From a virus (taxonomy: Duplodnaviria; Caudoviricetes), in the IMG/VR virus record IMGVR_UViG_3300032883_000356, positions 1 through 63,677 of that record: 63,677 nucleotides of DNA. One strand, given 5' to 3'. The position numbers and the translations under genes are program-made. The first letter of the stretch is position 1. Each line of letters begins with the position of its first letter. This document shows, piece by piece, positions 21,430-62,835 of the stretch. The notes under the pieces are model-generated. The model made no database searches. It saw nothing but the letters and a program-made list of their open reading frames with translations, and was not told the DNA's origin.

Positions 21430-21449
21430 ATGGTATCATGGTCTGTCAA
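21430..21449 (-). promoter_or_regulatory. Short-spacer promoter-like element
   Basis: TTGACA-gaccatga-TACCAT (8-nt spacer). Confidence 0.55.
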
Positions 21450-21450
21450 A

Positions 21451-24400
21451 TTATTCCTCTTCTGGTGGAGGCTGTAGTTGTGTCTCCGGTTCAGGGAGTG
21501 GCTTTTCTTTTCTAAACCCAAGTTCTATCATCTTTTGCATCAATAGTTTTCTAACATCCGGATCTTTATATTTATATACAGTTCCAAGTTTACTGTACAC
21601 ATACGGTCTATAACTTTTTCTTGTACTCTCGTCTGCGGATTCATAGGCCGATAAAGCAGAATCCAAAGGAAATCTCTTAAACTGATCTACGGTTGGAAGA
21701 ACCATCCTATTACCAGTTATTCTTTCCCATAGAGGCGCAGCTGAACGTTCCTTAGCCGGAGCTAAAGTACTCTTTTTATATCCAGACGTTATTTCTCGTT
21801 CACCTTCTGGAACAACATGTCGTGAACGGGCAGCAAAAACAAGAGCACCGAAATACTCTGCTGGATTGTGTTCTTTTCCATCATACAACATTGTTAATGG
21901 TGTTGAGATACTAAATGGAATGGGACCAAGGGTTTCTACGGCATGTATCAAACTTCTGATAGTACCGGCTATTGGTCCTGCCTCTTTGGGTACAATTGGA
22001 CTTCCAAGAAACGTCTTGTTGTTTAATACCTGGATGACATATCGAATGATAGGAGCTGCCTTATTTCCCAAACTCCTTGCCAGTCCACCCACCAATCCCC
22101 AATCAGCAACGTTCGTAGTTAGGTTAACTAGATCATTCGGTCCCCCAGCAAAGAACCAGTTAGAATAAATATCTTTTCCCTTGTTATCTTTTCCAAGATG
22201 TACCTGGGTCGGTTTATCTGACATCTTTCCAGAAACAAGCAAACTCATTCCCGCAGTAAGAGCCATTCCAACGCCGAAACTCGCAGCCCAAAATATACGG
22301 GCAGACTTTCCTGCCGGTCCACCCTTGAATGCCTGACCAGCCGTGTAAACATTAGAATACGTCCAGTCTGGTGCCAACAAAAGCGCTCTTTGGATATATA
22401 CTGAATTCTTGCTCCATCCAAGATTTTCCCAGTGCAATCCACCATAGACCCCATTTACCTCTCTGGCTATTTCTCTACGGGCTTGGTTTAATTCTTCGTC
22501 TGTTGCATTTGGATGTTCTGCAATCCAACCTGCTTCCTTAACAGAAAAATCTCCAACCTTAAATTTTCTTTGCAGTATACCAAAAGTTGCATGAGTTATC
22601 TTATGCGCAACTTCGGTTCCCTGGTCTATCACGGGCAGGCTGGCTACTTTATCTATCCAGTTAGGATCATTAATAGTAGATTGCATGCGTCTATATGTTT
22701 CTATATTTCTACCAAGTATGTCGGTTGTCATTCCAGATTTAATAGCAATAAGTTCCCTGGCTTTCCATTCAGGATTATCCATATCGGCTTTTATGGAATT
22801 AATAGTTTCTACGGGACCCATATTAGCTATAGCGCTAAGTCCTAAAGCTTTCATGTGGAACGTGCTCAATCCAAGTTCAACTGATTTAATATAAGCCTGG
22901 TACAGTCTCATCTGTTGAAGTGCCGGTACAAGATCAAAAAAGTTAGGATCAGTAATAGGATAAAGAGCCTTCACCAGTTTCTGTGGTCCATAGGCATCAC
23001 GGTATGCCATCTGCGGATTACCTTCCCTGTCAAGATAAGTTGTTACGTCTCTCCATAGTGGGTTTGTACCACGAACATAAGTAATCCAGTCTGCCGGAAC
23101 ACCTTCGGACTTCCTTGTTCCCCATTGAATAAGACCATTCTCCTCAAGCGCATTTATGAACTGGTTGGTAGCATACACATTTGCATGGCCTTTACCATAC
23201 AGCGTCATAGCATCAACTGCATTTATAGTAGCTGGGGTTTTGCTAAAAATGATAGCCTTTGCCATGTCGGTAAAAGTACGTTCATTCGCAAATCCAAACT
23301 TACGTGCTAGTTGCCCACCAGTAACATTGGTTCCGGCTCTTTCTCCGCGAAGTGGGGGATAGTCGGATGTTAGTATATGTGTAATATATTCTTCTGGTTT
23401 AATACTGCTGTGTAAGAATCCAAGATCTTGCCCTTCTTTTAGCTTTTCCTCAAAGTACTTGGTTTGCATATCAGAAGCACGTTCTAATTCTTCGTTTGGA
23501 TGCAACACTCTTTCCAACACGGGTTTAAGTTTTTCTATGCGATCTTTTGCCTGTTGAACATGATCATCGACTCTAGGCGCATCCATCCCTTCCTTTGTTA
23601 AATAATTAGCAAATTCTTTATAGTAAGGATGGCTTCCATCAAGAAGCATTTTAATTTCTTCGTCCGGTCTATTTTTAAATTCTCTGTAAAAAGTCAGTGC
23701 TTCTTGGTCCAATACATCAGAAAGTATTTTAGCTATCTCATCACGAAGTTGATTTGTCTGTGCAATCCTAACGTCTCTTTCCCCCGTGTATAAATTCCTA
23801 AATGCCTCATTAAGTTTTTGTGGAGTTTTTCCTTCTGTGGTTATAATGGCATCCGTTATATCTTTTGTTGGTTTTGAGATTCCCTTTGGGACTGGACCTG
23901 GAGCACCAGACTTAATTGGTCGTCCATATTGATCTATTAGACCACCAGTTCTTTCTGCTGGATCTTTAATACCAAGAGGTTCCCCTCCTGGTGGAGCAGC
24001 AATTTTAAGACGCCTACTTAAATCTGTCTCTAGTTTTGGTATTCCTTGTCCGGTAGCAAACACATCATGCGTTCTTGGATCTGTTATATCATACAGTAAT
24101 TTACTGTCGGTATCATTCTCCATCTGTCTCAATGTTCTCATTTGTGATGAAGTTGGAATTCCAAATATTTCAGCAGTAGCTACGCCATCCTGTATTTTTG
24201 TTCTTATCAATCCGTATTGGTTTACAATCTGCCCGAATGTTTTGTCGTAATCAAAATAGTTATGACCAAGAGCATTAAGTAAGGATTGTGCATGACTCCT
24301 AAATCCATTAGCTATTATTCCCCCGTTTGGGGTAATCCATCCATCTCCGCTTCTTGTGTATTCTGGATTATCAAATGAATCAACAAATGTACCGAGCTTC

Positions 24401-27400
24401 TTGAAATCTATCTTGGTCGGAAGTTTGGGCGCTCTTCTTGCTGCTTCTTTTATTCCAAGGGGTTCTTCTTCCGGTCCGGACGGAAAACTTATATCTTCTT
24501 CGGTGGGAGCGGCAAGTTGGGCTGGGGGCGCTTTAAGTGTTTCTGCCATTCCTGGCGTACCTGGCTCACCCCAGCCAAAAATTCCTTGGGCGAAGGCATG
24601 CGCCCCTGGTTCAGAAGCTTCTCGATTATTGGTTGGAACTTTTCCTTCGGGTTGAACGGTTGTTGGTTTTTCATATGGTATCCCATTATCATCTAAATAT
24701 TGTTCAGCTGCTTGAGACAAACTAAACGGTTTGTTAGTTGCCCCGTGTGCAGTATATAACGATTGTTCATAGTACCACAATACAGCTTGAAGTTCTGGTA
24801 TTTTAACCTTCAACACGCTTGCAAGTTGTTGTGAGGCTTTACGCATTAATTGGTTTTCCGCCCAACTACGAGGAGCATCCCTTGTGGTCCAAACATATTG
24901 TTGTTCATTCTGGTCCCACTTTTTTACCAGATCAACCGTACCCATTATACGATTCCACCCCCTGGTCCACCATCGATCCATGGTCAACTCAGATGAAACA
25001 CCAAGTAGGTTAGGAACAAAAGCCCCGACTTTTTCACCAAACATATATGTTCCAAGGCGCATAGTTTCGGCACCGCCTGGAATTTCCGCACCACGTTTAG
25101 CCTCAGAATATTTAACTGCATTCAATTCTTTTACGGGATGTTCGGTTAACAACCAATTAATAGCCTTGTTAATATCTCCATCATTCATATCAATTACACG
25201 TTGTAGTGTAATTAGATTATGAGTAAAGGCTTTTGTAGCAGCATTTCCCCAACTTCCTGATTCTGTGTCTGGGTTCTTAATTGGAACGGTTCCGTTTTCC
25301 GCCCACATATCGTAGGCCTTCATCGCAGTACCAAAATTTCCCTTAACTTCGTTCCCTGGACTTAGTATTCCAAATAGAATGGAGAATAACTTCCTCTGTG
25401 ATGGATCTTCAAAATCAGCTCGTGCATGAGTAAGTAGTTGATTCATGCGTTCAATATCTTTTTGATACCATTCCATCATTGAATTATCTTTTGCAATCTG
25501 GTAAAGAAATTCATTGCCTGCATGTTTAATGAAACGGTTGATCATGGATTTTTCTTGAGCGCGCTCGATAGTTCTTTTTGGAGGTAAAAGCTTACCATAT
25601 TTACTCTCCATAAAATCACTCATGGCTTTACCGATATCAATAACATTGGGGGTCCCTTCAACATCAAGCTTAAGGGGTTTATCTAACCATTTCGTAGATA
25701 AAAATCGTGGGGGGTCTCCTATTTCACGGGCATCTTTAATTCCTATGAGTTCGTTTGGAGGTGGGGCTGGAAGGCCTTCAAGATTCGGATGTCCGACCCA
25801 GTCGCTTGCCCATAAATCATAAAGAGCAACTGTATTTCTTATTTTTTCCTGATTGTTATTGCTTAGATAATCTTCTAGTTTTTGTGTCTGTTGATCAAGA
25901 AGTGGTTTATGTTCATCAAGGGCATTATTCAATAATTCATGAAAAGGTTCGTCGTGGGTACGATTCTTTTGATGAACCAATTCATGCACCATGCTAACAA
26001 CTGCCTGCCTTGCCACTTGTTTATGTATGTCATCTGTGTGTACGTGACCATTAACCACTAACCTAAACGCTTCTTCAAGTGATGTTAATGGGTTATAAAA
26101 TACAGGACAATTACTATCTGTACCGAATACTCGATCTCCATTATAATTTATTGCAAATGCCGTAGGATCTAAGGTATTACCGGCAAATACAGCCTTATTG
26201 TAATCGGGATCTATTCCACCAGATAAGGCATTTTTTAATTCATCAAATATTTCCGCAACCTTTCCTGTTAGACCTTGAATCCCACCATGGTGAGCTACTG
26301 TTGCCATAGTCCTTCGGCTAACCGTTCCGCTCTCGTCTACAACCTTATATACGTTATCTCCAACTCTATATGATGGAGCACGTTCTATAGCTTGAGCAAG
26401 TTCATATCCAGTTGGTGATTGCCCTGGCTTTAAATCAATAGGTGGAGTTAATCCAATAAATCCGGGTTCACCTGCTCCAAGTTGGGGGCTGATCCCAGAT
26501 ACTTCGGGCGCGACTGTAGGAGGGCGCTGTAAAGATTTTTCCAGTCCACTCCATCCCTCTGGGCTCGGCCCAATAGCATCTGCAAAACCTTGGGGTCCGG
26601 GTTCTCTCGTCTCAGGTGTGCGCTCACCGTAGCGAGATGCTCTATCCACTTCGGATCTCGCTGCCCGGTCAAGTTGTCGTTCGTCATCAATTCTGATTTG
26701 CTCACTTCCGGTTCTGGCGGTTGGTTGAGCCTCTCTTGGTCTTTCGAATATTCTTGCAAGATCTAATCCTCCCTCTATTGTTGGCAATCCATTAAAAGTT
26801 TCTTCTATTACTTGTCCCGCTGATTTACCGGTAGTTGGTTCTCTATCTAACTGCTGACTGGAAAAATCAAACACTCCTTTATGGAATCTATTTGCTACAG
26901 CAGGATCTTCCATCCAGGATTTTTCAATAATATTTTCGTCTCGGTCAGCCTGAGTCTTTGCTTCTAATTTTCGCCCTAGTTCGGCTTCATCATAAAGAGC
27001 AAGGTTATAAATATTGGCATGTGATATAATATCCCTGTTTGCGTTAAGCCAATCCATTGTTTTAGCATAAGTCTCAGGTGTTTCTCCCGGTAACCCAACC
27101 ATGATATTGGGAATTAATACCGCACCCGCATCTCTTATTTTCTGTGCTGCTTCGTTAATAAGAGTTTCGTTGGCAGGCTTTTTCATTGCCTTAAGAATTG
27201 GATCGTTATAAGACTCAATTCCAAGTTCGATGTATTTTATTCCAGCTCTGTTAATAAAATCAGAAGTAAATTTTTTCATCTGAGCAGCGGTAGTCTGAAT
27301 TATAAATCCGTCAAAGTCTGGATTTTGACCCTTAATCCTATTGTATATTTCAGGAAGCATAGTATGATTACTTGCCTGCCCAAATGTTTTATCGTTTATA

Positions 27401-29682
27401 TAAATAAGCCTTGATGGTAGATCCCTGGCAAAGGTATCTACCTGTTGCATAATCTGATCTCTTCCTGTCTCTGTTATGGCTTTTAGAATAGAACAGAAAA
27501 CACATGAATGCCTACATCCATCACTCATTGTAAGGCGCGGAACTGTCTTGGTACCAGAAAACAATCTGTAATCATATCCTGGATTATATACTGCGCCTTC
27601 GCTTTCTGTAAAATCTTTAATTGTTGGATAGACAGTTACATTAGGATGATTTTTAAAAATATCCATATCGGTATAGCCACCAACAACCAAATGGATTTTC
27701 GGAACCTCAGTAGCTATTTTATCGATAAGATCTCTATTTACATCCAACGCACTAAAAGCGATATTCTTATATCCGGAATTTTTGAAAAAATCTATCGCTT
27801 CGTCTATGTTTCTGATTGTATAGTGATCTGTAGTTTCTGGAAGGGCATATGACATATGAGCTTGCCACTGAGGTAATTCCCAAAAATCAGTTGGCCTATC
27901 ATATCCGGTTCTATTTTGGTAAAGTTTATCGTATGTAGTCCTTGGGCCTTTCTGTAAAAGGTCACTAGAAAACTGAACCATGAGGGTTCTATTACCATTG
28001 TCTGGGTCCAATGACTGACGAGCCCATATATTCTTATTTGCTACATCTTCTCCCTTAGTTCTGTTTGAAACTCCCTCACCGTAAGTAAGGGATGGAGTAG
28101 TTGTTTTAGATCCCGGTACTGGGGTTGGTGGCTCCATACCCGTTGGAACACCAGTTCTTTCTCGTAGGTTCTTTAGATCGATAAAGTCTAATCTCTCAAG
28201 ACCTTGTTTAATATCTTCGCTGACAGTTGGTGCTGGAGGTGGAAGTAACTTGCCCGCCTGGACTATCTGTTGGCGTTCTGTTGACCTCTTAAAGTCATCA
28301 AGAGATACTGGCATAACTGAAGGAGGTACAAGTTTTGCAGGTGTTGGCGCTGGAGGTACAGCCATACCTGGACCACGACCTACGATATCAAATTGTCCTG
28401 GCCTTACTGGAGGTAATCCACCCGTTTGTCCAGGTATGATAGGTCCCTTTACTATTAGCCCACTAGGTATTCCAACAGTTGGACCGGGTGGTAGGGCTAG
28501 TGGCGCTCGGGCTGGTTGTGGTAATCCTGCAAATGGTCCCGGTGCAAACTTTCCTGGTGCTGTTATTGCTTCTGGAATTGTTGGTGGTAATCCTTCTGGC
28601 GGAGCTAGTTGTAATGGTTGTGGAAATGTTCCTGGTACTCTTGAACCTGGAACTTCCTCGGGGGGTGGCAATGGTTCCCTCGTTGTTTGGAATTTAGCTG
28701 TTTGTGAAGCCAAATGTTCTTTAATTCTAGCTGGCGCATTTGTTAATCCTAAAACCGCAAAAGTTGCTTGTACCCCAGCATCGGCATAGTCACCTCTTTG
28801 AAAGGCATCCCACGCGCCCTTTGCATTTGCTGCGGTAAAAATTGCATCCATAGCATAACGCAAAGCTGGGCGAGTTCCATATATCAAACTAGCACCCTCT
28901 CCAAGAGGAACACCACTAGCAGCAAAAGCTATGTTAACAGGATCTGTAAAAAACTTTGCCGTATTACGAAGAAGCTGAACCGGAAGATTAGATATAAATG
29001 CCTCTGCTGGACTATCTACCTGTGGTGGTTCTGGGAATATCTTATTGATTACACTTTCTCGTAACTTATTAAATTCTTCCTGTCCTTTAGCGATTGGTTG
29101 AAGTATTCCAAGGGCACCGGCCTGTATAGGATGTTGTTCTTCCCAACTTGGTGGAATTGGTTCTTTAACGAATCCTACTGGTGGTCCCTGTATAGGCGGA
29201 GATGCTAATCCAGTTGTTTTTATAACATCGGCAGATACTCCAGGAGGGGGAGTAAGTCCATATCCTGGTGGCGGAGTAAACTGTCTAGTTGGAATATTAC
29301 CCGGTTCTACTAATTTTGGTGGCGGAGTTGGTTTGGAAACCGGCTTAGGAAGTTCCGTAACCGGAGGCATTAATCCTTCCCCTCGTGGTCCCTTTAACAG
29401 CTGCCATACTTTTTCAAATATTCCAGGTTCAGCAACCTTGGTTTCCGCTTTAATACCAAAGTAATTTTTCCATTCGTCCACAGTTGCGTTTATGGTTCTA
29501 TCTTGAATCTCGGGAGTATCTTTAAGGAAGTCCGGACGAAGTTTTCCTAATATATATTTCTTGGTTTCTTTGTCTGAACCGTGATATCGTTGAGATAGAA
29601 GTATATCCCGTGGCTTTAATGAGCCCCAATCCGGTTCCTGTTGGTTTTGAGTGGTACTCTTTTCGTCCAGATTGTCTGCCAT
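21451..29682 (-). CDS. Giant polyvalent internal virion/ejection protein with radical SAM, zinc metallopeptidase and HhH glycosylase-like domains
   Basis: 2743 aa; last gene of the ejection cluster; CRHSCVFC (CxxxCxxC), HELVH...HDEPF, FGEKVGAF...TMDRWWTR...ELQAVLWYYE. Confidence 0.8.
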   Translation of the reverse strand: MADNLDEKSTTQNQQEPDWGSLKPRDILLSQRYHGSDKETKKYILGKLRPDFLKDTPEIQDRTINATVDEWKNYFGIKAETKVAEPGIFEKVWQLLKGPRGEGLMPPVTELPKPVSKPTPPPKLVEPGNIPTRQFTPPPGYGLTPPPGVSADVIKTTGLASPPIQGPPVGFVKEPIPPSWEEQHPIQAGALGILQPIAKGQEEFNKLRESVINKIFPEPPQVDSPAEAFISNLPVQLLRNTAKFFTDPVNIAFAASGVPLGEGASLIYGTRPALRYAMDAIFTAANAKGAWDAFQRGDYADAGVQATFAVLGLTNAPARIKEHLASQTAKFQTTREPLPPPEEVPGSRVPGTFPQPLQLAPPEGLPPTIPEAITAPGKFAPGPFAGLPQPARAPLALPPGPTVGIPSGLIVKGPIIPGQTGGLPPVRPGQFDIVGRGPGMAVPPAPTPAKLVPPSVMPVSLDDFKRSTERQQIVQAGKLLPPPAPTVSEDIKQGLERLDFIDLKNLRERTGVPTGMEPPTPVPGSKTTTPSLTYGEGVSNRTKGEDVANKNIWARQSLDPDNGNRTLMVQFSSDLLQKGPRTTYDKLYQNRTGYDRPTDFWELPQWQAHMSYALPETTDHYTIRNIDEAIDFFKNSGYKNIAFSALDVNRDLIDKIATEVPKIHLVVGGYTDMDIFKNHPNVTVYPTIKDFTESEGAVYNPGYDYRLFSGTKTVPRLTMSDGCRHSCVFCSILKAITETGRDQIMQQVDTFARDLPSRLIYINDKTFGQASNHTMLPEIYNRIKGQNPDFDGFIIQTTAAQMKKFTSDFINRAGIKYIELGIESYNDPILKAMKKPANETLINEAAQKIRDAGAVLIPNIMVGLPGETPETYAKTMDWLNANRDIISHANIYNLALYDEAELGRKLEAKTQADRDENIIEKSWMEDPAVANRFHKGVFDFSSQQLDREPTTGKSAGQVIEETFNGLPTIEGGLDLARIFERPREAQPTARTGSEQIRIDDERQLDRAARSEVDRASRYGERTPETREPGPQGFADAIGPSPEGWSGLEKSLQRPPTVAPEVSGISPQLGAGEPGFIGLTPPIDLKPGQSPTGYELAQAIERAPSYRVGDNVYKVVDESGTVSRRTMATVAHHGGIQGLTGKVAEIFDELKNALSGGIDPDYNKAVFAGNTLDPTAFAINYNGDRVFGTDSNCPVFYNPLTSLEEAFRLVVNGHVHTDDIHKQVARQAVVSMVHELVHQKNRTHDEPFHELLNNALDEHKPLLDQQTQKLEDYLSNNNQEKIRNTVALYDLWASDWVGHPNLEGLPAPPPNELIGIKDAREIGDPPRFLSTKWLDKPLKLDVEGTPNVIDIGKAMSDFMESKYGKLLPPKRTIERAQEKSMINRFIKHAGNEFLYQIAKDNSMMEWYQKDIERMNQLLTHARADFEDPSQRKLFSILFGILSPGNEVKGNFGTAMKAYDMWAENGTVPIKNPDTESGSWGNAATKAFTHNLITLQRVIDMNDGDINKAINWLLTEHPVKELNAVKYSEAKRGAEIPGGAETMRLGTYMFGEKVGAFVPNLLGVSSELTMDRWWTRGWNRIMGTVDLVKKWDQNEQQYVWTTRDAPRSWAENQLMRKASQQLASVLKVKIPELQAVLWYYEQSLYTAHGATNKPFSLSQAAEQYLDDNGIPYEKPTTVQPEGKVPTNNREASEPGAHAFAQGIFGWGEPGTPGMAETLKAPPAQLAAPTEEDISFPSGPEEEPLGIKEAARRAPKLPTKIDFKKLGTFVDSFDNPEYTRSGDGWITPNGGIIANGFRSHAQSLLNALGHNYFDYDKTFGQIVNQYGLIRTKIQDGVATAEIFGIPTSSQMRTLRQMENDTDSKLLYDITDPRTHDVFATGQGIPKLETDLSRRLKIAAPPGGEPLGIKDPAERTGGLIDQYGRPIKSGAPGPVPKGISKPTKDITDAIITTEGKTPQKLNEAFRNLYTGERDVRIAQTNQLRDEIAKILSDVLDQEALTFYREFKNRPDEEIKMLLDGSHPYYKEFANYLTKEGMDAPRVDDHVQQAKDRIEKLKPVLERVLHPNEELERASDMQTKYFEEKLKEGQDLGFLHSSIKPEEYITHILTSDYPPLRGERAGTNVTGGQLARKFGFANERTFTDMAKAIIFSKTPATINAVDAMTLYGKGHANVYATNQFINALEENGLIQWGTRKSEGVPADWITYVRGTNPLWRDVTTYLDREGNPQMAYRDAYGPQKLVKALYPITDPNFFDLVPALQQMRLYQAYIKSVELGLSTFHMKALGLSAIANMGPVETINSIKADMDNPEWKARELIAIKSGMTTDILGRNIETYRRMQSTINDPNWIDKVASLPVIDQGTEVAHKITHATFGILQRKFKVGDFSVKEAGWIAEHPNATDEELNQARREIAREVNGVYGGLHWENLGWSKNSVYIQRALLLAPDWTYSNVYTAGQAFKGGPAGKSARIFWAASFGVGMALTAGMSLLVSGKMSDKPTQVHLGKDNKGKDIYSNWFFAGGPNDLVNLTTNVADWGLVGGLARSLGNKAAPIIRYVIQVLNNKTFLGSPIVPKEAGPIAGTIRSLIHAVETLGPIPFSISTPLTMLYDGKEHNPAEYFGALVFAARSRHVVPEGEREITSGYKKSTLAPAKERSAAPLWERITGNRMVLPTVDQFKRFPLDSALSAYESADESTRKSYRPYVYSKLGTVYKYKDPDVRKLLMQKMIELGFRKEKPLPEPETQLQPPPEEE

Positions 29683-32142: not shown

Positions 32143-32730
32143 TTACTCCGGATACTGAAACTGGTTTCGCGTCATAAGCGTAACCACTCCAGTTGTCACC
32201 TCACCCTTATAGGTTGTATAATTGGGGAGTCTCCCAACTTCCCTGAAACCGGCTCTCTTAACATAAATTAAAGCCGCTCTGTTTTCTTCCGGCGTAACCC
32301 CAACAATTGTATCGATTTTAAGAACATTAAACCAGTAATCTATTACCATCCAGGCGAACTGATCAGTGTATGCTGGCTTCTGATAATCTTTAAAGAAAAC
32401 AAACGATCCCACCGCACGAGTAAGCTTCCCAGCACAGACTGCAATGTCTGTAACCCATGCCATTCCAACAATATCAACTATCTTATCACCATCAACCAAA
32501 CTGAATATTTGGGATAGTGATTTAGACGGATCACTGAAAAAATTCATGAACTGAAGAGGGGTCATATTTGTGGATTCATGGAATACGATATCAAATAACT
32601 CTTCTATTTTCAATCTGTTATAAATAGAAATCAGCGCATCTTCCTTGTAAACTCCGAAGGTTGGTGAATATGGAAGCAACATTAAATTACCACGCACAAA
32701 TTCAAAATCTTTTTTGACGGTTTCTGTCAT
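32143..32730 (-). CDS. GNAT-fold acetyltransferase-like protein
   Basis: GVTPEENRAAL.Y.KRAGFREVG motif; start at the ATG with an AAGGAG RBS. Confidence 0.75.
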   Translation of the reverse strand: MTETVKKDFEFVRGNLMLLPYSPTFGVYKEDALISIYNRLKIEELFDIVFHESTNMTPLQFMNFFSDPSKSLSQIFSLVDGDKIVDIVGMAWVTDIAVCAGKLTRAVGSFVFFKDYQKPAYTDQFAWMVIDYWFNVLKIDTIVGVTPEENRAALIYVKRAGFREVGRLPNYTTYKGEVTTGVVTLMTRNQFQYPE

Positions 32731-32748: not shown

Positions 32749-32769
32749 ATAATACCACAACCAGGTCAA
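32749..32769 (-). promoter_or_regulatory. Short-spacer promoter-like element
   Basis: TTGACC-tggttgtgg-TATTAT (9-nt spacer). Confidence 0.45.
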
Positions 32770-44521: not shown

Positions 44522-44749
44522 TTAAAATCCCTGTCTGTTACGTTCACAATCAGGCTTTGTCGGAAGATCCTCATCATCAAGAATGAATGGAGTTATGAAT
44601 TCACCACCAGCTTTAACACCACAATCAGGTACACGAAATGCCATGGATGGATCATCCGGAGAACGTCCTTCGGGTGGAATATGCCCCGTAGGCTCTTGGT
44701 TAAATTCAGGATCTGGACGACATTGTTCTCTTGGGACTTCTTTTCTCAT
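44522..44749 (-). CDS. Hypothetical protein
   Basis: 75 aa, AGGAG RBS. Confidence 0.6.
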   Translation of the reverse strand: MRKEVPREQCRPDPEFNQEPTGHIPPEGRSPDDPSMAFRVPDCGVKAGGEFITPFILDDEDLPTKPDCERNRQGF

Positions 44750-44767: not shown

Positions 44768-44787
44768 ATGATATCATTGCTTGTCAA
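44768..44787 (-). promoter_or_regulatory. Short-spacer promoter-like element
   Basis: TTGACA-agcaatga-TATCAT (8-nt spacer). Confidence 0.55.
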
Positions 44788-46153: not shown

Positions 46154-46180
46154 TCAACGTACCAATCCCCCAATTTAATT

Positions 46181-46831
46181 CTACACCTTCTCTGTCAATA
46201 CCAGATACTGCTGTTCCCCAACCGATACTGGCAAACTCATTTGCCCTATCTTAATAGAGCTATCACACCAAGATCGAAATCCGAGTTCACGAGCCCGCTT
46301 ACAAAATTCCACATCTTCACCATAGGGCAAACCAGCAGAGCCTCCCCAGATGGGTATATCCATCGCTTTTAGTACCTCTGTCTTGATCAACATCACACCA
46401 GTGCCGCTTCCACCCGGTGTTTCAAATAAAGCATTTTCTGGATAGTCATATATCGGAACGTAGTTTCCTAGTTCATCAATATCAAATATTAACGGTTCAA
46501 TTGGCGGGGTTGATCTAAAAAATAATGGCGATACTATATCAACATCATGAACTAGCAGTTTATCGATGAGGCCTGGAACAACAACCATGTCATCATCAAT
46601 AAGCAAAAGAAAGTCTGCACCACCCTCTATGGCAGTATGTGAGGCTGTATTTCTGGCTATAATTGTTTTCATTTTTGGACCTGGCACACACCATCTAACT
46701 TCATACTTTCTAATAGTTTCTGCGTAACCAGTGTATTGTGAGAATATTAAAAAACGGATAAATGGTTCTGGTTGGACAGAATGATAAACCGGTACCGCTA
46801 TTAAGATCTTTGGTATGTTTTTACTTGACAT
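46181..46831 (-). CDS. GT-A glycosyltransferase within the virion gene cluster
   Basis: KILIAVP, IARN, LLLIDDDM, GTGVMLIK.EVL, GEDVEFC; start moved to the ATG with a GGAG RBS. Confidence 0.85.
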   Translation of the reverse strand: MSSKNIPKILIAVPVYHSVQPEPFIRFLIFSQYTGYAETIRKYEVRWCVPGPKMKTIIARNTASHTAIEGGADFLLLIDDDMVVVPGLIDKLLVHDVDIVSPLFFRSTPPIEPLIFDIDELGNYVPIYDYPENALFETPGGSGTGVMLIKTEVLKAMDIPIWGGSAGLPYGEDVEFCKRARELGFRSWCDSSIKIGQMSLPVSVGEQQYLVLTEKV

Positions 46832-46853
46832 GTGGCGGCTCCTATGATATAAT
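46825..46853 (+). promoter_or_regulatory. Consensus sigma70 promoter for the inverted HNH gene
   Basis: TTGACA-N17-TATAAT with extended -10 TG. Confidence 0.8.
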
Positions 46854-46874: not shown

Positions 46875-47777
46875 ATGACACAAGATAGAATTATGAGAAA
46901 ATGTCCCGGATGTGAGACCGAATACGAAACATATATTAAACACAACGGAATGCCATATCGTGAATTTTGCAGTATGGCATGCTCTAATCGTTCTAGGGCT
47001 GAAAGGGCTGCTAATACACTTTGGGAAAAAAGACATGAGGTTGGCGATCTTAGAGCCCCAAGGAATGTCAATAAAATTTCTATAGAGGAGGATCTTGCTA
47101 TTAAAAATTCTCCAAAGCCGCTTTGTGCTTGCGGTTGTGGTCAACCAGTTAAAAGAATTGACAGAAAATACATATTCGGACACTACGCCAACGTTACAAG
47201 AACTACAAGAATTACAAAGCGGTGTCTGTGGTGTCAGAAAGAAATCGTAGTTGCTGAAAAGTACAAAGACAGACATAATTATTGCAGCAAAACATGTGAG
47301 ATGAAGCATAGAATGACAGGAACAAAAAGAACTGGGTGGGTAAAAAGAATTTGTCCAATTTGCCAATCTGAATATGAAACAACGGCTGGAGATCTTGAAT
47401 CCGGGCGGCGGGTTACCTGTTCTTATGCTTGTGGAATTGAGGCTAGTAGGAGAAGCAGGATTATTAGTCCTGATGGATATCCAACGGCTAGGGAACCACA
47501 AAGAGATCAAACTCTTCAATCTAGACAAAAATGTGATAATTGTGAGTATGGGGAAATTACCGACCTTCTGGTTATTCATCACATTGATCACAATCCAAGA
47601 AATGGCAATCCGGCCAATATCTTACTCCTGTGCCCTATGTGCCATGCAAAGGAACACCATAGACTAAAAACCGGATGGTTCACTGAAACTAAACATGGAT
47701 ACAAAAAAGATATTGGGTATACTGACAATATCGAAATACGGCAAGAAAACGGCACAGTTAACATAGATGAAATTTGA
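46875..47777 (+). CDS. HNH endonuclease with multiple zinc fingers, opposite to the structural operon
   Basis: CxxC...CS..C repeats, CACGCG, IHHIDHNPRN..PANILLLCPMCH..EH. Confidence 0.85.
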   Translation: MTQDRIMRKCPGCETEYETYIKHNGMPYREFCSMACSNRSRAERAANTLWEKRHEVGDLRAPRNVNKISIEEDLAIKNSPKPLCACGCGQPVKRIDRKYIFGHYANVTRTTRITKRCLWCQKEIVVAEKYKDRHNYCSKTCEMKHRMTGTKRTGWVKRICPICQSEYETTAGDLESGRRVTCSYACGIEASRRSRIISPDGYPTAREPQRDQTLQSRQKCDNCEYGEITDLLVIHHIDHNPRNGNPANILLLCPMCHAKEHHRLKTGWFTETKHGYKKDIGYTDNIEIRQENGTVNIDEI

Positions 47778-50863: not shown

Positions 50864-51104
50864 AAATAAATTTAACCTCCTAAGGTTAAAGTTAAGTTGT
50901 TGATAAAAACAAACAAACGCAAATGTTATTGGGCTTCAATGGCTATATTTCAACCATTCACAATTGGCATCTACCTCTGCTTGTCTTACCTTCCAACTCT
51001 GGGCTCTGCCTTTATGGCTTCCCATCACCGGTTCGGGTAACGCTAGGAGTTAGGCCCCAGAAGAGAATAACCGATAGCCCTGGTCATCCTCTTCTGTATT
51101 ACAA
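50864..51104 (-). promoter_or_regulatory. Structured 240-nt intergenic region/leader of the capsid gene
   Basis: 15-bp stem at 51058-51096, 7-bp stem near 50938-50958, 8-bp stem at 50871-50890 covering the Shine-Dalgarno. Confidence 0.5.
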
Positions 51105-52008: not shown

Positions 52009-52028
52009 ATTATACAATCCCGAGTCCA
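52009..52028 (-). promoter_or_regulatory. Short-spacer promoter-like element
   Basis: TGGACT-cgggattg-TATAAT (8-nt spacer); palindrome ATCCAAC-A-GTTGGAT just upstream. Confidence 0.5.
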
Positions 52029-52054
52029 TTAGTATCCAACAGTTGGATTAATGG

Positions 52055-52459
52055 CTACCCTAGTGGCGGAACCCCGCCCCCAGTACCCGGAGGTGGAGGG
52101 GGAGGACCAGCGGTACCGGCTTCTGTCGGTCCACGTCCTGGTGTTGCCCCACCAGTTGGAGCAGTGCTAACGGCTGACACTCCTGTATCAATAATCTGCT
52201 GAGCCTTCTGGGCAAACGGAGCGAATAATGGTTCCGTACCCGCAATCTGCTCTAAAACTTTTTTAATTGCGTCCACCTGAGCCAAAAGAAATCCATGCGG
52301 ATTTGGTGCCCCAAGAGCTGCCCCCTGTGGCCCTGGTGCAGTATTTCTTTGCGCCAAGGTAGCAAGCCCACCACCCGATGGTGGTTTTTGTGGCATTCCC
52401 ATCTGCGTCTGGATATCTGGACTAGGCAATGGTGGCTGATCCATTCCAGGCAGTGCCAT
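52055..52459 (-). CDS. Pro/Gly-rich hypothetical protein
   Basis: Start overlaps the upstream stop; central helix with low-complexity flanks. Confidence 0.65.
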   Translation of the reverse strand: MALPGMDQPPLPSPDIQTQMGMPQKPPSGGGLATLAQRNTAPGPQGAALGAPNPHGFLLAQVDAIKKVLEQIAGTEPLFAPFAQKAQQIIDTGVSAVSTAPTGGATPGRGPTEAGTAGPPPPPPGTGGGVPPLG

Positions 52460-52989: not shown

Positions 52990-53204
52990 TACCTTCTCCC
53001 CTTTGATCTAGAAGTTTTTCTAGATTTATCTTTCCTTGCTTGACCGGACTCTGAAAGGGCAATCGCTTCTGCCTGAGCCCTGGATTTAACAACCGGTCCT
53101 GTTTTAGATCCACTATGTAACGAGCCACGTTTAAACTTACCCATTTCTTCGTGAACTCGTTCTTGTTTGGCTTCTCTTGAAGCTCCTGGTCCCAATTTAG
53201 GCAC
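52989..53204 (-). CDS. Small basic protein (DUF6496-like)
   Basis: EMGKFKRGSLHSGSKTGPVVKSRAQAEAIALSE motif. Confidence 0.7.
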   Translation of the reverse strand: MPKLGPGASREAKQERVHEEMGKFKRGSLHSGSKTGPVVKSRAQAEAIALSESGQARKDKSRKTSRSKGRR

Positions 53205-53457
53205 GGCTTATATTCCTCGCCATAACTTTTCTACCAGCCCTTGCTAACATTCTTGGTTGCTCGGTAGTCTCATCTCCATCATCTAGGCCTATAATTGCGC
53301 TGTGTTCTGTTTTTATTCTACTCATTGCCTTTGAATGACGATTTTTATTTGACCTTAACTCAGCATACCTTCTAATTTTGTCAGCATCATCCCGAACCTG
53401 ATAGTCTTCATCTGGAGTAGAAATTGATGGAATTGTTTTTCTGTTTTTTCTTGCCAT
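53197..53457 (-). CDS. Small hypothetical protein
   Basis: 86 aa, GAGG RBS, basic C-terminus. Confidence 0.6.
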   Translation of the reverse strand: MARKNRKTIPSISTPDEDYQVRDDADKIRRYAELRSNKNRHSKAMSRIKTEHSAIIGLDDGDETTEQPRMLARAGRKVMARNISRA

Positions 53458-53470
53458 CTATAAATCCTCG

Positions 53471-53522
53471 GATATTGCCAAGAATCGAGCGGATGAGTAA
53501 AAACTCAATCCTTGGCAATATC
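53471..53522 (-). other. 19-bp RNA hairpin over the GIY-YIG stop codon
   Basis: GATATTGCCAAGGATTGAG pairs fully with CTCGATTCTTGGCAATATC using two G-U pairs on the minus strand. Confidence 0.65.
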
Positions 53523-54098
53523 ACTCGGGAGTTTGCCGTCCCTTATAGAATACCATTGTTTGTCAATACCCCAGATACTTTTTCCTCTTTTCCCATTAAC
53601 GGTCAAACGGATAGCGTCACAAGAAACATTAAATATTTTTGCTATACGAGCACATGAAACACCTTGAGCGTGCATCATTACTATATTTCTTCTTTGAGAA
53701 TCTGACAATTTTGATTTTGGATGCCTAGAACCATAGAACGGATTTTTATTTCCAATCTTAGCAGCCCGCATTTTCTCTATCGCTTCTGCACTAAATTTAC
53801 GGCCAGGCGTTCCGTCACCACCATCAGTAAGATTGGTTAGCTTGGCCCCTGTTTGTTTAAATCCTAAAATCCATGCCTTCTCAGCATCTTCTCGCTGATT
53901 ATCGTCACATTCTTCCAAAATTTCAACAATTGGTTTTAAATTATTAGAAATCAAGGATTTAATCCAACAAGTTTTATAGGTATTATCATCGAAATATAAA
54001 TGATCAGTCATGCGATGTTTTAAATTATTCGTTACCCCAACGTATCTTGGTTCCATATTTCTTGGATCACTTAAAAGATATATAAAATTTACACTCAT
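53505..54098 (-). CDS. GIY-YIG homing endonuclease with NUMOD3/HTH
   Basis: FIYLLSDPR...RYVGVT...R...H, E..WI, LTNLTDGGDG, KIGNKNPFYG. Confidence 0.9.
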   Translation of the reverse strand: MSVNFIYLLSDPRNMEPRYVGVTNNLKHRMTDHLYFDDNTYKTCWIKSLISNNLKPIVEILEECDDNQREDAEKAWILGFKQTGAKLTNLTDGGDGTPGRKFSAEAIEKMRAAKIGNKNPFYGSRHPKSKLSDSQRRNIVMMHAQGVSCARIAKIFNVSCDAIRLTVNGKRGKSIWGIDKQWYSIRDGKLPSDIAKD

Positions 54099-54102
54099 CC
54101 CA

Positions 54103-54282: not shown

Positions 54283-54284
54283 AA

Positions 54285-54641: not shown

Positions 54642-54650
54642 AACTTTCTC

Positions 54651-54977: not shown

Positions 54978-55164
54978 ACCTTTTTCCTAATTCTTATGAG
55001 TATATTCTTGATTTTAACAAGAAACATCTTCCACCATGATTGTGACACACAAACGTCAATAGGTTGCTCGCCCATGGTTGGTAGTTTGCCGAAGAAAAAA
55101 ACACTTTCTCCCGGTTCCCCATGCTCTGTTGATATTAAATCTTGGCCCAGTTGAAATGCATATC

Positions 55165-55956: not shown

Positions 55957-55964
55957 ACTCGCCC

Positions 55965-57083: not shown

Positions 57084-57085
57084 AA

Positions 57086-57997: not shown

Positions 57998-58012
57998 ATA
58001 TTATTCCCAGAA

Positions 58013-58357: not shown

Positions 58358-58390
58358 GAGATTTTATTACCTTATTTAAATGTTAAATTG

Positions 58391-58603
58391 TTAACGTGAT
58401 CCACCACGAGATTTATGTCTTTTACCAGCGAATCTCTTTCCAGTACGAGCAAGAGAAACCATCTTTCTCATATGAGGATCTTTGCTACTTTTAGCCGAAG
58501 CCATCTTAGACTCCGGAATCTTTTCACCTTCTTTTACACCCAATGCACGATGAAGCCTTCCCGGATGTGCCCCAAATGCTTTCCGCATCCATTTTTCAGC
58601 CAT
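58391..58603 (-). CDS. Small basic phage protein
   Basis: KW...A....PG.LH.ALGV..GEKIP..K motif; RHKSRGGSR tail. Confidence 0.7.
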   Translation of the reverse strand: MAEKWMRKAFGAHPGRLHRALGVKEGEKIPESKMASAKSSKDPHMRKMVSLARTGKRFAGKRHKSRGGSR

Positions 58604-58605
58604 CT

Positions 58606-58956
58606 CTAACTCCTAATCGGTTTTCCGTCCGGACCCAACAATCCAATTTCTTTGGCTGAAGAATTCGGACCTAAAATTATCTTTGTTGATTCTGGGCGGG
58701 CAACCTCAATTTCCCGATAACATCTATGACACTTAAAGGAAATAGATTCTCCGGAAGATCCTTTCGCTTCATATGCAGATCTTTTATTTCTTTGGCCACA
58801 TCCGGGGCATTCAAAAACAATGTAATCCGTACCCTTCTCTCTTGGGCCAATCCTTGTAACGTATCTTCCTTTATTTATTTTTTTCGTACTACATTTATGA
58901 CCACCACCATGATTGACGACTTTCAAGGATTTACCTTGTAAGATTATTCCCGACAT
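58606..58956 (-). CDS. Zinc-ribbon protein
   Basis: CPGC...CHRC; ends LLGPDGKPI. Confidence 0.6.
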   Translation of the reverse strand: MSGIILQGKSLKVVNHGGGHKCSTKKINKGRYVTRIGPREKGTDYIVFECPGCGQRNKRSAYEAKGSSGESISFKCHRCYREIEVARPESTKIILGPNSSAKEIGLLGPDGKPIRS

Positions 58957-58979
58957 ACTACATCCCTATCTTAATAACA

Positions 58980-59234
58980 CTAAACCGATTCATTGACACA
59001 CCAAATAACAGGAAGTTCTGGATACATAGGTGGACAATATGGTATTGCCGGAGGCGCAACATACCAGGGATAAGGAATAGGATATGGGTATGGATAGTAT
59101 TTTTCTGTTAATACTATGGCTTCTCTTTTACCTAAGATTACATCTAACGTTGTTCTAAGTTCCTCGGCTTCTTCTTTGGATAACTCAAGTTCTTTGTCGC
59201 CGATTTTAATTTTAATTGATTTAATTTCTATCAT
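58980..59234 (-). CDS. Hypothetical protein
   Basis: IKIGDKELELS.EEA..L plus a Tyr/Pro-rich tail. Confidence 0.6.
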   Translation of the reverse strand: MIEIKSIKIKIGDKELELSKEEAEELRTTLDVILGKREAIVLTEKYYPYPYPIPYPWYVAPPAIPYCPPMYPELPVIWCVNESV

Positions 59235-59243
59235 AAATTATTC

Positions 59244-61136
59244 CTATACCGTAGGAGTGGGTGCCCCACCACCTGCAGGCGAACTATCCAAGCCCTTGAG
59301 CACTTCTGGGGATACCGCACCACCCCCACCGGCACCAGACATCTTTTGTCTGATCATATTAACAAAGAATTCTTTTCCTTCTTGGTCAAGATTCTTCTGT
59401 ATACTTTCCTTTAGACCACCAAGGTCCAAAGCTTCCAACATGTTATCCCGATCCATATCACCCATACGCCTCAAATTAAGCATAAGCATTTGCTGTGGAA
59501 TACGAGCGGATTTTAACAATGATCCAGGTTGAATCATAAATTGGAACGATCTCCAATGTTCTTCTTTTGGTACACCATGTGGAACCATTGTTCCGGGGTC
59601 AAAATCAAAATCCTCAAAAGTCTTTCCGTCTTCGCCCAACATTTGAATTCTTCTCTTTAGTCCATAAAACTGGAAAATATTAGGAATAAATTGCTTACCT
59701 ATATCCTTTAGAAATCCTTCGATGTATCTTACCTTTAATCGAACTAGTGTTTGTTGTCCCTCTTTCATCTGTTCCAGTGTATCTGCGGCGGGTACAATGC
59801 CCTTTCTGCTCACGGAACTTAAATCAATAAATCCAGATTGGGCATCCAGTTCCTGTTGTGCGTATAACATGGTCTGGAAAACAAATCCTGGTAATGCTGG
59901 AGTGGGAGCATACTGAGGTGGGTTAATAGCCGCTGGATTATAGAATACTTTGGCTCCTGGCATATTAGGATCTAGATTTCTCTTAACAGCTAAACTGAAT
60001 GCATTATCCGGAGAAACAAGAGGTGGATTTACTGCTTTCTTAACCGCATCTAAAATACCAGCTAGAATGTTATTCATTACATCCTGTAATGGTATCTGGT
60101 TCCTGAATTCAGAAACACCAGGCCACTGCCAAGGAACCCTATTCAATCTTAGTGCAGCAAAAGGAAAAGCTCCATGCCAAAACGGGTTTGGGCCATCGTA
60201 CAACACGACCGGCCCACCCATTGTTATCAATCGTCCCCTTGGATACAATCTCTGTCCTGATTGGACAACGTACCCGTATCCTTTATCTATATCCCCTACA
60301 AATACGGATTTATCCGATGTATTTTTCTGATTATCACGAATCCAGAACTCTCTATATAGGGCCATTGGGATAACAGAATCGCGGTACTGCGAAGCTGATT
60401 GTCCAAAGAGACGACGCATTTGGGGGGATAGTACTTGCCATGCCCTCCCCCACATTCCTTGACCGGCACCAGATGATGCCGTATTAATATATTGTGAATA
60501 CTCTCTATCTATTGGTACCGCAAAACCCTTAGTAGGATACTTCTCCTGAAACCAGGTTAATGGTTTAGGTACTCTGTAGATAACCCCAAGGGCCTTCTGA
60601 AGGTTATGTCCAGGTCTAATTGGAATCACATCCATCGGTCCACATGCGGTAAGCTCGAATTCGCCGTCACCATTCATTAAATCCGGATTCCAGGTTAATC
60701 TTCCGTATCCAATTGTAAGAGCACTATGGATGATGATCATAGCCATAGTCATATCAATGTCTTCGTTAAAAAACCAAGCTTTGATCAACTGATTTAATAT
60801 TTTAGCATGCTTATCATAAAGTCTGTTGTTAGCCTTAACTTCAAACGTTTGACGAATATCTGTAAGGTAAGAAACAAGTTGAATTAGATTGGTCCACAAC
60901 CGGTTTGCTACTGGGGCTGATTTGTATGACGGTCTTCGTTCTACCCATTGCTTTCCCATAAGATAATTGATATTTCTATCAATCATTACGATTTCTTCGT
61001 ATTTTTCTAATTCGTCCTTTGCTTCTTCAAAAACCGCCTGACACCACGATCCTACACTCTTGTCGTGTTCGGTCAACTGAAGATTCGTTTCCATTCCAGC
61101 AGAATCATACGAATAAAACCCAGGAAGATTTGGCAT
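59244..61136 (-). CDS. Portal protein
   Basis: 630 aa near the terminase; YL.GKQW, G.VVLYDGPNPF, FPF, IPLQ..MN; P22/T7-type layout. Confidence 0.85.
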   Translation of the reverse strand: MPNLPGFYSYDSAGMETNLQLTEHDKSVGSWCQAVFEEAKDELEKYEEIVMIDRNINYLMGKQWVERRPSYKSAPVANRLWTNLIQLVSYLTDIRQTFEVKANNRLYDKHAKILNQLIKAWFFNEDIDMTMAMIIIHSALTIGYGRLTWNPDLMNGDGEFELTACGPMDVIPIRPGHNLQKALGVIYRVPKPLTWFQEKYPTKGFAVPIDREYSQYINTASSGAGQGMWGRAWQVLSPQMRRLFGQSASQYRDSVIPMALYREFWIRDNQKNTSDKSVFVGDIDKGYGYVVQSGQRLYPRGRLITMGGPVVLYDGPNPFWHGAFPFAALRLNRVPWQWPGVSEFRNQIPLQDVMNNILAGILDAVKKAVNPPLVSPDNAFSLAVKRNLDPNMPGAKVFYNPAAINPPQYAPTPALPGFVFQTMLYAQQELDAQSGFIDLSSVSRKGIVPAADTLEQMKEGQQTLVRLKVRYIEGFLKDIGKQFIPNIFQFYGLKRRIQMLGEDGKTFEDFDFDPGTMVPHGVPKEEHWRSFQFMIQPGSLLKSARIPQQMLMLNLRRMGDMDRDNMLEALDLGGLKESIQKNLDQEGKEFFVNMIRQKMSGAGGGGAVSPEVLKGLDSSPAGGGAPTPTV

Positions 61137-61166
61137 AATTATATTCTTTCGATTATCATCACTCTT

Positions 61167-61186
61167 AGTTTATCACCCAATGTCAA
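61167..61186 (-). promoter_or_regulatory. Short-spacer promoter-like element
   Basis: TTGACA-ttgggtga-TAAACT (8-nt spacer). Confidence 0.55.
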
Positions 61187-61191
61187 GATAT

Positions 61192-61479
61192 CTAGGGCGT
61201 TTCTGACTGCGGAGGAGAACCACAATCTGCCATCTTAACACCGTGCTCAGCCTCAAGTTGGCGCAATTGTCCAGAACCTGTTACGGTAACTGGCGTTCCG
61301 TCTTCCATTATATTTTTTGTAGTAAATACAGGAAACACATGCACATTCGCTAAGGAGTACAATCTGTCTCCCGCTCCACCACATACCTGACACGTTTCGA
61401 ACATTATTGCATGAGGAATTGAAGAAAAAGATTCCCAGACCTTGCTACATTTTTTGCATTGATATTCGTATAGTGGCAT
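61192..61479 (-). CDS. FmdB-family zinc-ribbon protein
   Basis: MPLYEYQCKKC...CQVCGG...R.YS. Confidence 0.85.
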   Translation of the reverse strand: MPLYEYQCKKCSKVWESFSSIPHAIMFETCQVCGGAGDRLYSLANVHVFPVFTTKNIMEDGTPVTVTGSGQLRQLEAEHGVKMADCGSPPQSETP

Positions 61480-62216
61480 TAGAAAAGCTCCGTTCTTTCA
61501 ATCCTTCCCATAGAAATCTTATTCTTCCATGGTCTAAAAATAATCTCTTGAATGACACTAAAAGCTCTTTCATCTATAGACTCAAAATATATTTCTACCG
61601 TGAATGTGTAATCATCAAACAGTTCATTGATAGTAGTAGGATCACTAGATTTATGCAATACCTTATGTAACATGAACCTTTCAATTGGACCACCCGGTTT
61701 GTATTCCACGCTTAATTGAATAGACTTTCCCGGACCAAGACTAGAAATATCTTTAGGGGAAAATGACACTTCTTCTTGAGTCCACTCTTTATCGTATTCG
61801 TATTCTATCCCTCGTCTTATTACCTGATCCTTCCTAACAAGTTGTGGGATTTTCACCCTAACAGGAAGTACGGTAATATTTACTGCTGTATTATTTACAG
61901 ATAAATTTCTCAGAGTAATCTCATAAGATTTGGGTTCTGGTACATTGGTAGGTAATATCATAATCGGAACCGGTTCCAATACCTTGTCTTTCTTTTTTCT
62001 GGATTTTTTGGGTAATGGCTTCGCTTCCTGTGGATCTTCGTTGGAAATTGTCCTGTCTGCAACATTAGGCGGTAGCATTGGTTCTTCATGTTCATATTCC
62101 AATGCAAGTAAAAGGTCTGTAGGCTGGGGCTTCTTTTTAAACCAATCTTTGAAACTTTTCATAACAACTCCTTTAATTTTATACGAATTAATAATACCAC
62201 TGACAATCCAATCCAT
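61479..62216 (-). CDS. Hypothetical protein
   Basis: ORF in operon; the true start is probably MKSFKD near 62162 (AAGGAG RBS). Confidence 0.55.
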   Translation of the reverse strand: MDWIVSGIINSYKIKGVVMKSFKDWFKKKPQPTDLLLALEYEHEEPMLPPNVADRTISNEDPQEAKPLPKKSRKKKDKVLEPVPIMILPTNVPEPKSYEITLRNLSVNNTAVNITVLPVRVKIPQLVRKDQVIRRGIEYEYDKEWTQEEVSFSPKDISSLGPGKSIQLSVEYKPGGPIERFMLHKVLHKSSDPTTINELFDDYTFTVEIYFESIDERAFSVIQEIIFRPWKNKISMGRIERTELF

Positions 62217-62796
62217 CTTCTACCTTGGCATTCATGTATCTTGTAATGTCCATCCCATTGGCCTCGGCAATGTCCTTTATAGGTTCAACGTGACGTTCCG
62301 GAATGACAAGCTGTATCACGGCATCCCCTCCGACTCCACGAACTGTTCCTGGTCCGCTTCCTGTTCCGCGCACCTTCTGTGCAGCTTCAGCGCGAGCTAA
62401 TAATTCTTTAGTGTCTTGAAGCGCCTGGTGGAGAGCGAACACTGCACCGAACAAACTAGAACTATCGGTAAAATGTCCAATAAGTTGAGTCATTCGGGTA
62501 ACATCAACAGGTGTTAATTTTAATGCCGAAACACCTGCTGCATCAATGGGATCTGTTATATCTTTGGCAACTTCCAACGGTTGGACTGGTGGCGCGGGTG
62601 GTTTGGGTGGTTCCTTGGCTTTCTTTTGTTCGTTCATTGTTCTTGTTAAATTACTTAATTCTTCACGGTCTTCGTAGACATGTTCCCTGCCACATCTTAA
62701 TGGTTGAGTAGAACCAAGCCTATACTGAAGAGCCTCATCTATTCCATCCTGAAGGTAACATTTCGGGCACATGTCCGGTTTTCTTTCTTTTATCAT
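62188..62796 (-). CDS. Zinc-finger/coiled-coil protein with a C-terminal ribbon-helix-helix-like domain
   Basis: CPKC...CGREH; VIQLVIPERHVEPIKDIAEANGMDITRYM fits an RHH pattern. Confidence 0.5.
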   Translation of the reverse strand: MIKERKPDMCPKCYLQDGIDEALQYRLGSTQPLRCGREHVYEDREELSNLTRTMNEQKKAKEPPKPPAPPVQPLEVAKDITDPIDAAGVSALKLTPVDVTRMTQLIGHFTDSSSLFGAVFALHQALQDTKELLARAEAAQKVRGTGSGPGTVRGVGGDAVIQLVIPERHVEPIKDIAEANGMDITRYMNAKVEDGLDCQWYY

Positions 62797-62815
62797 TTAA
62801 AACTCCTTGTATCTT

Positions 62816-62835
62816 TTAATACCAGATAGTGGCAA
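62816..62835 (-). promoter_or_regulatory. Short-spacer promoter-like element
   Basis: TTGCCA-ctatctgg-TATTAA (8-nt spacer), 20 nt before an AAGGAG-led ATG. Confidence 0.45.

Follow-up and report, generated by a model that had tools for sequence, protein, structure and literature searches.

How are the virion genes of a phage switched on when the heads of their operons carry a perfect −35 hexamer that lies only 8 or 9 bases from the −10 hexamer? The question is raised by a stretch of phage DNA of 63,677 bases (IMG/VR record IMGVR_UViG_3300032883_000356, called here the window), a linear record rated about 60% complete by CheckV, the minus strand of which holds nearly all the genes from 3.8 kb onward. 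The element in question, TTGACA-N8/9-TAnnnT with a frequent TGn before the second hexamer, had been described at six minus-strand sites by an examination of the letters alone (the sequence-only reading), which took it for a promoter class of its own, with a spacer reduced by about one helical turn. That proposal is upheld by the orthologous conservation of the element in related phages, by its coexistence with 17-18-nt promoters and by a conserved RNA that begins at the predicted transcription start. With modest confidence, we favour the reading in which the sites are the transcription start signals of a clade-specific phage promoter class, at which the host σ70 polymerase would be retargeted by an early phage factor. 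The class would serve virion genes and, in the genome of the window, lysis genes. A spacing of 8-9 bases should be unusable by an ordinary bacterial RNA polymerase (RNAP), so that the phage would probably steer the host polymerase by means not described so far.

The six sites previously claimed are all found in the window at the positions and with the sequences given for them, their −10 hexamers being placed 18-32 nt ahead of the start codon, and five of the six have TGn before the −10 as had been reported, the TG of site 52028 being one base too close. Two more sites, at 53566 and 46198, had been missed. The predicted short-spacer sites are the following, the scores being those of a position weight matrix.

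62816-62835 (−): weak site before gene 62188-62796, TTGCCA-8-TATTAA, without the T at −7; score 14.6.
61167-61186 (−): promoter before the portal gene (59244-61136), TTGACA-8-TAAACT, with TGa.
53547-53566 (−): promoter before the conserved leader RNA, TTGACA-8-TATTCT, with TGg; best score in the window.
46178-46198 (−): possible extra site before a small open reading frame (ORF), TTGACA-9-TAGAAT, followed after 7 nt by GGGGG; score 14.8.
44768-44787 (−): promoter before the 75-residue first gene of the tail operon (44522-44749), TTGACA-8-TATCAT.
32749-32769 (−): site before gene 32143-32730, TTGACC-9-TATTAT, with TGg.
21430-21449 (−): site before a 103-residue gene and the M15 endolysin gene, TTGACA-8-TACCAT.

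Site 53566 sits within the 3′ end of an inserted homing-endonuclease ORF. The genes are tightly packed, and the sites fill most of the few intergenic gaps of at least about 40 nt, at the heads of operons.

The comparison rests on IMG/VR searches with the portal and the capsid proteins, which yielded 17 and 26 loci, respectively, and on eight relatives whose records were examined whole, all oriented to the strand coding for the late genes. G001 (110,116 bases), G006 (110,207 bases), G008 (106,946 bases, with direct terminal repeats) and G010 (101,761 bases) are rated 100% complete and G011 95% complete. The GC content extends from 41% (window) to 58%. We distinguish a close clade of IMG/VR phages of about 110 kb, with capsid proteins at least 83% identical, from a distant one (G010 and G011), with capsid proteins 67-71% identical.

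The counts against shuffled sequence and against other spacer lengths, which had been put forward as checks, bear the element out. The exact pattern TTGACA-N{8,9}-TAnnnT occurs seven times in the window for 1.86 expected, only one of 100 shuffles reaching seven, and all seven matches are on the coding (minus) strand, which shows a peak at spacers 8 (five sites) and 9 (two sites); the plus strand has no site at either spacer. Two of these matches, at 37484 and 42740, are within genes and unconserved, and their number is about that expected by chance. The version with a 16-18-nt spacer is not enriched in the window (4 for 2.83 expected), and in its late half classical promoter-like sites are at background (52 for 47.4). 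Six non-redundant genomes together have 21 coding-strand sites with a spacer of 8 or 9, where 2.7 are expected from the other spacers, an excess whose P value is overstated because orthologous sites share descent and are not independent. In the 26 capsid loci, some of them duplicates (of G001, G002/G003, G005 and G006), the coding strand gives 22 sites at spacer 9, one at spacer 8 and 0-3 at every other spacer, and the opposite strand gives two. Finally, no hexamer is more enriched than TTGACA in the intergenic sequence ahead of the minus-strand genes of five genomes (18 for 2.65).

The same spacing was sought upstream of the portal genes of relatives, as the sequence-only reading had advised, and orthologous TTGACA-N8/9-TAnnnT elements are found there. 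Of the 14 portal loci whose record extends upstream of the gene, eight (L002-L009) carry the element and six, with portals 68-70% identical, lack it; G006, L171 and L172 carry it too. In an alignment of nine portal upstream sequences (mean column identity 51%) TTGACA is the sole invariant block besides the start codon. The orthologue of the 75-residue tail-operon gene, detected in 10 of the 26 capsid loci, has TTGACA-N9-TAnnnT directly upstream in all ten, and the same holds for L160 and for G006 at 69703. Site 53566 has orthologues in G001 (84209), G002 (19934), G005 (3180), G006 (76034), L171, L172 and L178; in an unselected set of this leader-RNA site, TTGACA is kept in 10/10 sequences and TAnnnT at spacer 8 or 9 in 8/10, the exceptions being one relative with GAAGAT and one degenerate sequence. 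Of the 23 copies of TTGACA on the coding strand of G006, none but the three at orthologous positions is followed by TAnnnT at spacer 9. The distant clade shows no peak at spacer 8 or 9.

The grouping of the six original sites in one class is consequently upheld in part: 61186 and 44787 belong to it and are conserved, 32769, 21449 and 62835 are specific to the window among the relatives examined, and 52028 leaves the class. The three window-specific sites have no counterpart in G001, G002, G004 and G005, where there is no gap at those positions. The G001 orthologue of gene 32143-32730 abuts its neighbour without a short-spacer site, and a search for closer relatives for site 32769 found none. 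For the lysis site 21449, no orthologous lysis locus was found among the relatives, the best being endolysin loci of 32% identity. Ahead of gene 62188-62796 in G001, G002, G004 and G005, the upstream gene reaches the Shine-Dalgarno (SD) sequence and leaves no site, and the window has an EndoVII gene inserted upstream. The additional site 46198 has no counterpart in G005.

Site 52028 (52009-52028, minus strand, TGGACT-8-TATAAT) is rejected as a member since no TAnnnT is conserved there at spacer 8 or 9 in nine genomes; it can also be read as TGGATA-18-TATAAT. What is kept in the nine genomes before the scaffold gene is a block at 52015-52050 (−), made of a covarying hairpin and of GGAC(T)nnGGG, which directly follows the stop codon of gene 52055-52459. 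Two other elements were observed in this region. Between the scaffold and capsid genes, a spacer of 241 nt (50864-51104, minus strand) is conserved at the nucleotide level with G002 and may be an RNA element, and in the distant clade repeated GCAGCC...GAAGG motifs stand ahead of the scaffold and capsid genes.

The anatomy of the element is given by the consensus of 18 sites, (C/A)TTGACA-N4/5-RTGn-TA(T/A)n(C/A)T. Its first box matches the canonical −35 hexamer, each position being kept in 17-18 of the 18 sites. In the second hexamer TA is found in 18/18 and the final T in 17/18 of these training sites, which were partly picked by that very pattern, and the extended −10 has T at −15 in 17/18 and G at −14 in 12/18. 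The spacer measures 8 nt in G004, in L008 and at the other sites of the window, and 9 nt at window sites 32769 and 46198 and in the other genomes; its sequence diverges between relatives, as do the flanks, while both hexamers stay. Among 21 distinct gene-proximal sites, 20 have an SD core that starts 5-8 nt past the −10, most often at 6 nt, so that transcription from the usual seventh base would yield an mRNA that opens with its SD sequence. Conserved RNA or the SD sequence starts at the sixth to eighth base after the second hexamer.

The most instructive site in this respect is 53566, which is followed by a leader.

53458-53540 (−): structured 5′ leader RNA of gene 53197-53457, the first conserved base being the 7th nt after the −10.

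In five genomes the leader has an invariant 5′ start, GACGGCAA(A)CTCCCGA, which falls 5-6 nt after the −10 across relatives. In the predicted folds, GACGGCAA(A)CUCCCGA is followed by a hairpin of 13-18 bp and then by an SD sequence able to pair with the 5′ CUCC; the stem differs in sequence in every relative and is covarying. This structure comes from folds of single sequences, RNAalifold on a MAFFT alignment having given a poor consensus. A search of Rfam with the leader matched no family, and a scan for its DNA pattern hit at least 80 loci, with L055, L101 and L116 as true relatives among the matches listed. The leader looks like a translational control element. Its conservation begins exactly at the predicted +1, which is the best available evidence that TAnnnT would act as a −10 of the σ70 type.

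Promoters of ordinary geometry exist in the same genomes. The four 17-nt promoters that had been reported in the window are indeed present.

5413-5441 (−): predicted classical promoter.
18198-18226 (−): predicted classical promoter, TTGACA-17-TATTGT, with TGg.
20632-20660 (−): predicted classical promoter, TTGACT-17-TATAAT; its seventh base downstream of the −10 is the A of an ATG at 20625.
46825-46853 (+): perfect classical promoter of the HNH endonuclease gene (46875-47777), TTGACA-17-TATAAT.

The last of these is the sole perfect classical promoter in the late half of the window, and it is on the other strand. From promoter 20632-20660, a leaderless mRNA is predicted for gene 20230-20625. 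Across these genomes, clear TTGACA-N16-18-TAnnnT promoters precede early, replication, endonuclease and regulator genes and the gene of a HARE-HTH (helix-turn-helix) protein. The host enzyme therefore uses the normal spacing in these genomes.

The model that we propose starts from the geometry of the holoenzyme, in which the docking of σ region 4 on the β-flap fixes the reach to the −35 box. The extended −10 formed by TGn and TAnnnT would be recognised through regions 3 and 2 of a holoenzyme of the σ70 family, most likely that of the host. TTGACA would then lie at about −27/−26 to −22/−21, beyond the reach of a flap-docked region 4, which would require the action of an early phage product. This product would either free region 4 and reposition it about 9 bp closer, or bind the box itself and contact the polymerase. 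Either action would turn the virion genes on and could turn the 17-nt promoters off. The more specific version, that a phage protein detaches region 4 of the host σ70 from the β-flap and keeps it nearer to region 2 by about one helical turn, is tentative and, taken by itself, rather doubtful; if true, the holoenzyme would be re-spaced from the 17-nt promoters of the host and of the early genes to the 8/9-nt promoters of the virion genes.

The alternative that survives best, though we think it unlikely, is that both boxes are read by a divergent phage σ factor, missed by profiles, in which the distance between regions 2 and 4 would be intrinsically short. The two boxes do resemble elements of the σ family, phage σ factors are often too divergent for Pfam, and most early proteins of G001 have no family match. 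To our knowledge, however, every member of the σ70 family docks its region 4 on the flap, the spacer being about 16-17 nt. The remark that no phage σ factor or RNAP is recognised in the window holds and extends to four complete relatives. Sigma70_r2, r4, r4_2 and TIGR02937 have no match above cut-off in G000, G001, G002 and G006, profile searches with PF04542 and TIGR02937 gave no match, and neither did the T7-type RNAP family (PF00940), the control of which matched nowhere either. The weak matches to region 4 are explained otherwise: the one at 53607-53711 is part of a homing endonuclease (PHROG 314) and not a regulator, and others belong to an SbcC-like protein and to XRE-type HTH proteins. 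The small XRE-type HTH proteins of G001, G002 and G004 are ordinary Cro-like proteins, not conserved in G006. Few early genes are common to the whole clade, which also speaks against a shared σ factor.

Among the genes common to the close clade, one candidate for the retargeting factor is a protein of 119-149 residues whose gene adjoins the packaging genes in G001, G006 and G004. The gene is also found in G007, G008 and G009 and was not found at E≤0.01 in the distant G010 and G011; the window, whose end falls short of the terminase region, does not contain it. In five of six genomes it follows a classical 17-18-nt promoter. A profile search gave 158 homologues at E≤1e-3, and 25 of the 56 that were aligned match Pfam HARE-HTH (best E in the family 1.3e-14), the G001 protein itself matching no family; a word-based search returned only the query. 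AlphaFold models it with confidence (predicted local distance difference test, pLDDT, 90.8) as a single long helix that leads into a winged helix. Nothing was matched at E≤0.001 by Foldseek, which returned weak winged-helix matches only, two of them to chains of Bacillus subtilis RNAP complexes. We regard this putative coiled-coil and HARE-HTH winged-helix protein as a lead and not as a finding, and the chance that it is the factor as rather small.

A second alternative, which we hold improbable, dispenses with a phage activator: the host holoenzyme alone would use an ordinary extended −10, and TTGACA, dispensable for initiation, would serve a phage repressor or timing factor as its operator, or would have another role. 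TGn is frequent at the sites, and extended −10 promoters need no −35 (PMC3950348). This fits poorly with the fact that TTGACA is kept more strictly (17-18/18 at every position) than the −10 or the TG, that the G at −14 is missing in 6 of the 18 sites, and that hexamers such as TAGGCT and TAACCT would be poor for unaided initiation.

It is just as improbable, in our judgement, that the element is not a promoter at all, but an RNA-level or translation-linked cassette carried on a read-through mRNA, or a σ-dependent pause or loading site. The fixed distance from motif to SD sequence, the constant location on the coding strand and the other conserved RNA-like elements of the region are in keeping with it. 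However, a pattern of hexamer, unconserved spacer of 8 or 9 and hexamer is typical of DNA recognition, the leader site has no nearby SD sequence and its RNA is conserved only after the element, and the sites head operons and fall in the few gaps between genes. As for the remaining ways of reading the boxes, positions 17 nt downstream of each TTGACA fall on the SD sequence and show by eye no consistent −10 hexamer, and the site sequences do not fit the −24/−12 consensus of σ54 (TGGCAC-N5-TTGC, with GG at −24 and GC at −12).

Several points weigh against retargeting of the host enzyme. It is unusual for transcription to start on the first base of an SD sequence, and the constant distance from motif to SD sequence would also fit an RNA-level or translation cassette. 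Three window sites have no counterpart elsewhere, and only three sites per genome are conserved in the complete relatives, so that the class is small. The negative searches for σ factors are weak because divergent phage σ factors escape Pfam. The link to the HARE-HTH protein is a single clade contrast (present in 6/6 close and 0/2 distant genomes), which phylogeny alone could give, and the data do not separate a moved region 4 from another protein that reads the box.

Phage-specific promoters that keep the host −10 and change the upstream element are a known kind, to which the present class would belong; its geometry, and a box identical to the −35 consensus, would be new. The canonical σ70 promoter has the same hexamer consensuses, TGn and −10 to +1 geometry, and differs by its spacer of 16-18 nt (15-19 tolerated), compared with 8 or 9 at all the sites described here. 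The middle promoters of phage T4 (PMC2988021) likewise combine the σ70 −10 of the host, often with TGn, with a −35-replacing box closer than 17 nt, placed 12±1 bp from the −10 by AsiA/MotA; an early phage factor is needed and the promoter class switches during infection. The MotA box is (a/t)(a/t)(a/t)TGCTTtA, centred at −30, at 12±1 bp, whereas here TTGACA, identical to the −35 consensus, stands at 8-9 bp. Furthermore, no AsiA or MotCF domain was detected in five genomes: PF09010 and PF09158 (AsiA, MotA) have no match at E≤1 in G000, G001, G006, G007 and G008, the controls being without T4.

A relocation of region 4 by a phage protein has precedents. The gp39 protein of the Thermus phage P23-45 moves region 4 by about 45 Å without blocking its DNA binding and favours TGn-TAnnnT over −10/−35 promoters (PMC3950348). 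The extended −10 middle and late promoters of P23-45 have no discernible −35-like box, unlike the perfect box found here at a fixed short distance. Another related system is the paused complex at the λ PR′ promoter, which differs in being an early-elongation complex downstream of a normal promoter that serves Q loading; no promoter is found here 20-30 nt upstream. In this complex, a flap-freed region 4 reportedly binds a −35-like TTGACT beside the pause-inducing −10-like element (a result ascribed to Nickels et al. 2002), which would show that region 4, once released from the flap, can recognise its hexamer much nearer to region 2. The displacement of region 4 from the flap is confirmed in a further source (PMC4914094). 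A literature search, which covered articles without their supplements, found no report of TTGACA at 8-9 nt from the −10 as a phage late promoter class and no description of a re-spaced holoenzyme of this kind.

A megablast of the window against named phages gave no match, and its portal protein is only about 24% identical to the portals of named phages. PHROG and Pfam annotation of 30 window proteins and 20 proteins of relatives left most of them without a family, and the transcription-related matches were of HTH type only. The assigned features are as follows.

59244-61136 (−): portal protein of P22/SU10 type.
20666-21079 (−): M15 endolysin, by family match.
21451-29682 (−): protein of 2743 residues with a Radical_SAM domain at residues 719-879.
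53505-54098 (−): inserted homing endonuclease (PHROG 314), overlapping promoter 53566.
46875-47777 (+): inserted HNH homing endonuclease, with its perfect consensus promoter on the opposite strand to the late genes.
62839-63360 (−): inserted EndoVII, upstream of site 62835.
Elsewhere in the window: the major capsid protein, 82-87% identical to those of relatives, and an SbcC-like ATPase.

The orthologues of the 2743-residue radical-SAM protein have 4529 residues in G001 and about 5950 in G006. The product of gene 58-651 (+) has a G001 orthologue (52% identical) that matches the tyrosine recombinase (Phage_integrase) family, and the gene is also kept in G006, where it adjoins glycosyltransferase genes. 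In G001 (79908-81627; L027/L193) the capsid gene is in two pieces with an ORF of 211 residues in between, which may be an insertion of intron or intein type. The sole and weak hint at a host comes from L160, a GTDB contig of 6432 bases that is a fragment of the clade and is binned in a metagenome-assembled genome of Alphaproteobacteria.

In conclusion, our observations describe an element in which the canonical −35 hexamer is kept but lies about 9 bp closer to an extended −10, and which is conserved in this form across widely diverged genomes. With its box, its −10 and its SD sequence at the predicted +1, it would constitute a compact cassette of about 45 nt, and it offers a practical marker for the annotation of late operons in an uncultivated phage clade. 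Phage switches of polymerase specificity, such as those of T4 AsiA/MotA and P23-45 gp39, have informed how σ and the flap set the geometry of promoters. Which protein, then, reads TTGACA at −24? Whether it is a displaced region 4 or another protein that binds the box, the answer would be a new way of re-aiming the bacterial RNA polymerase.

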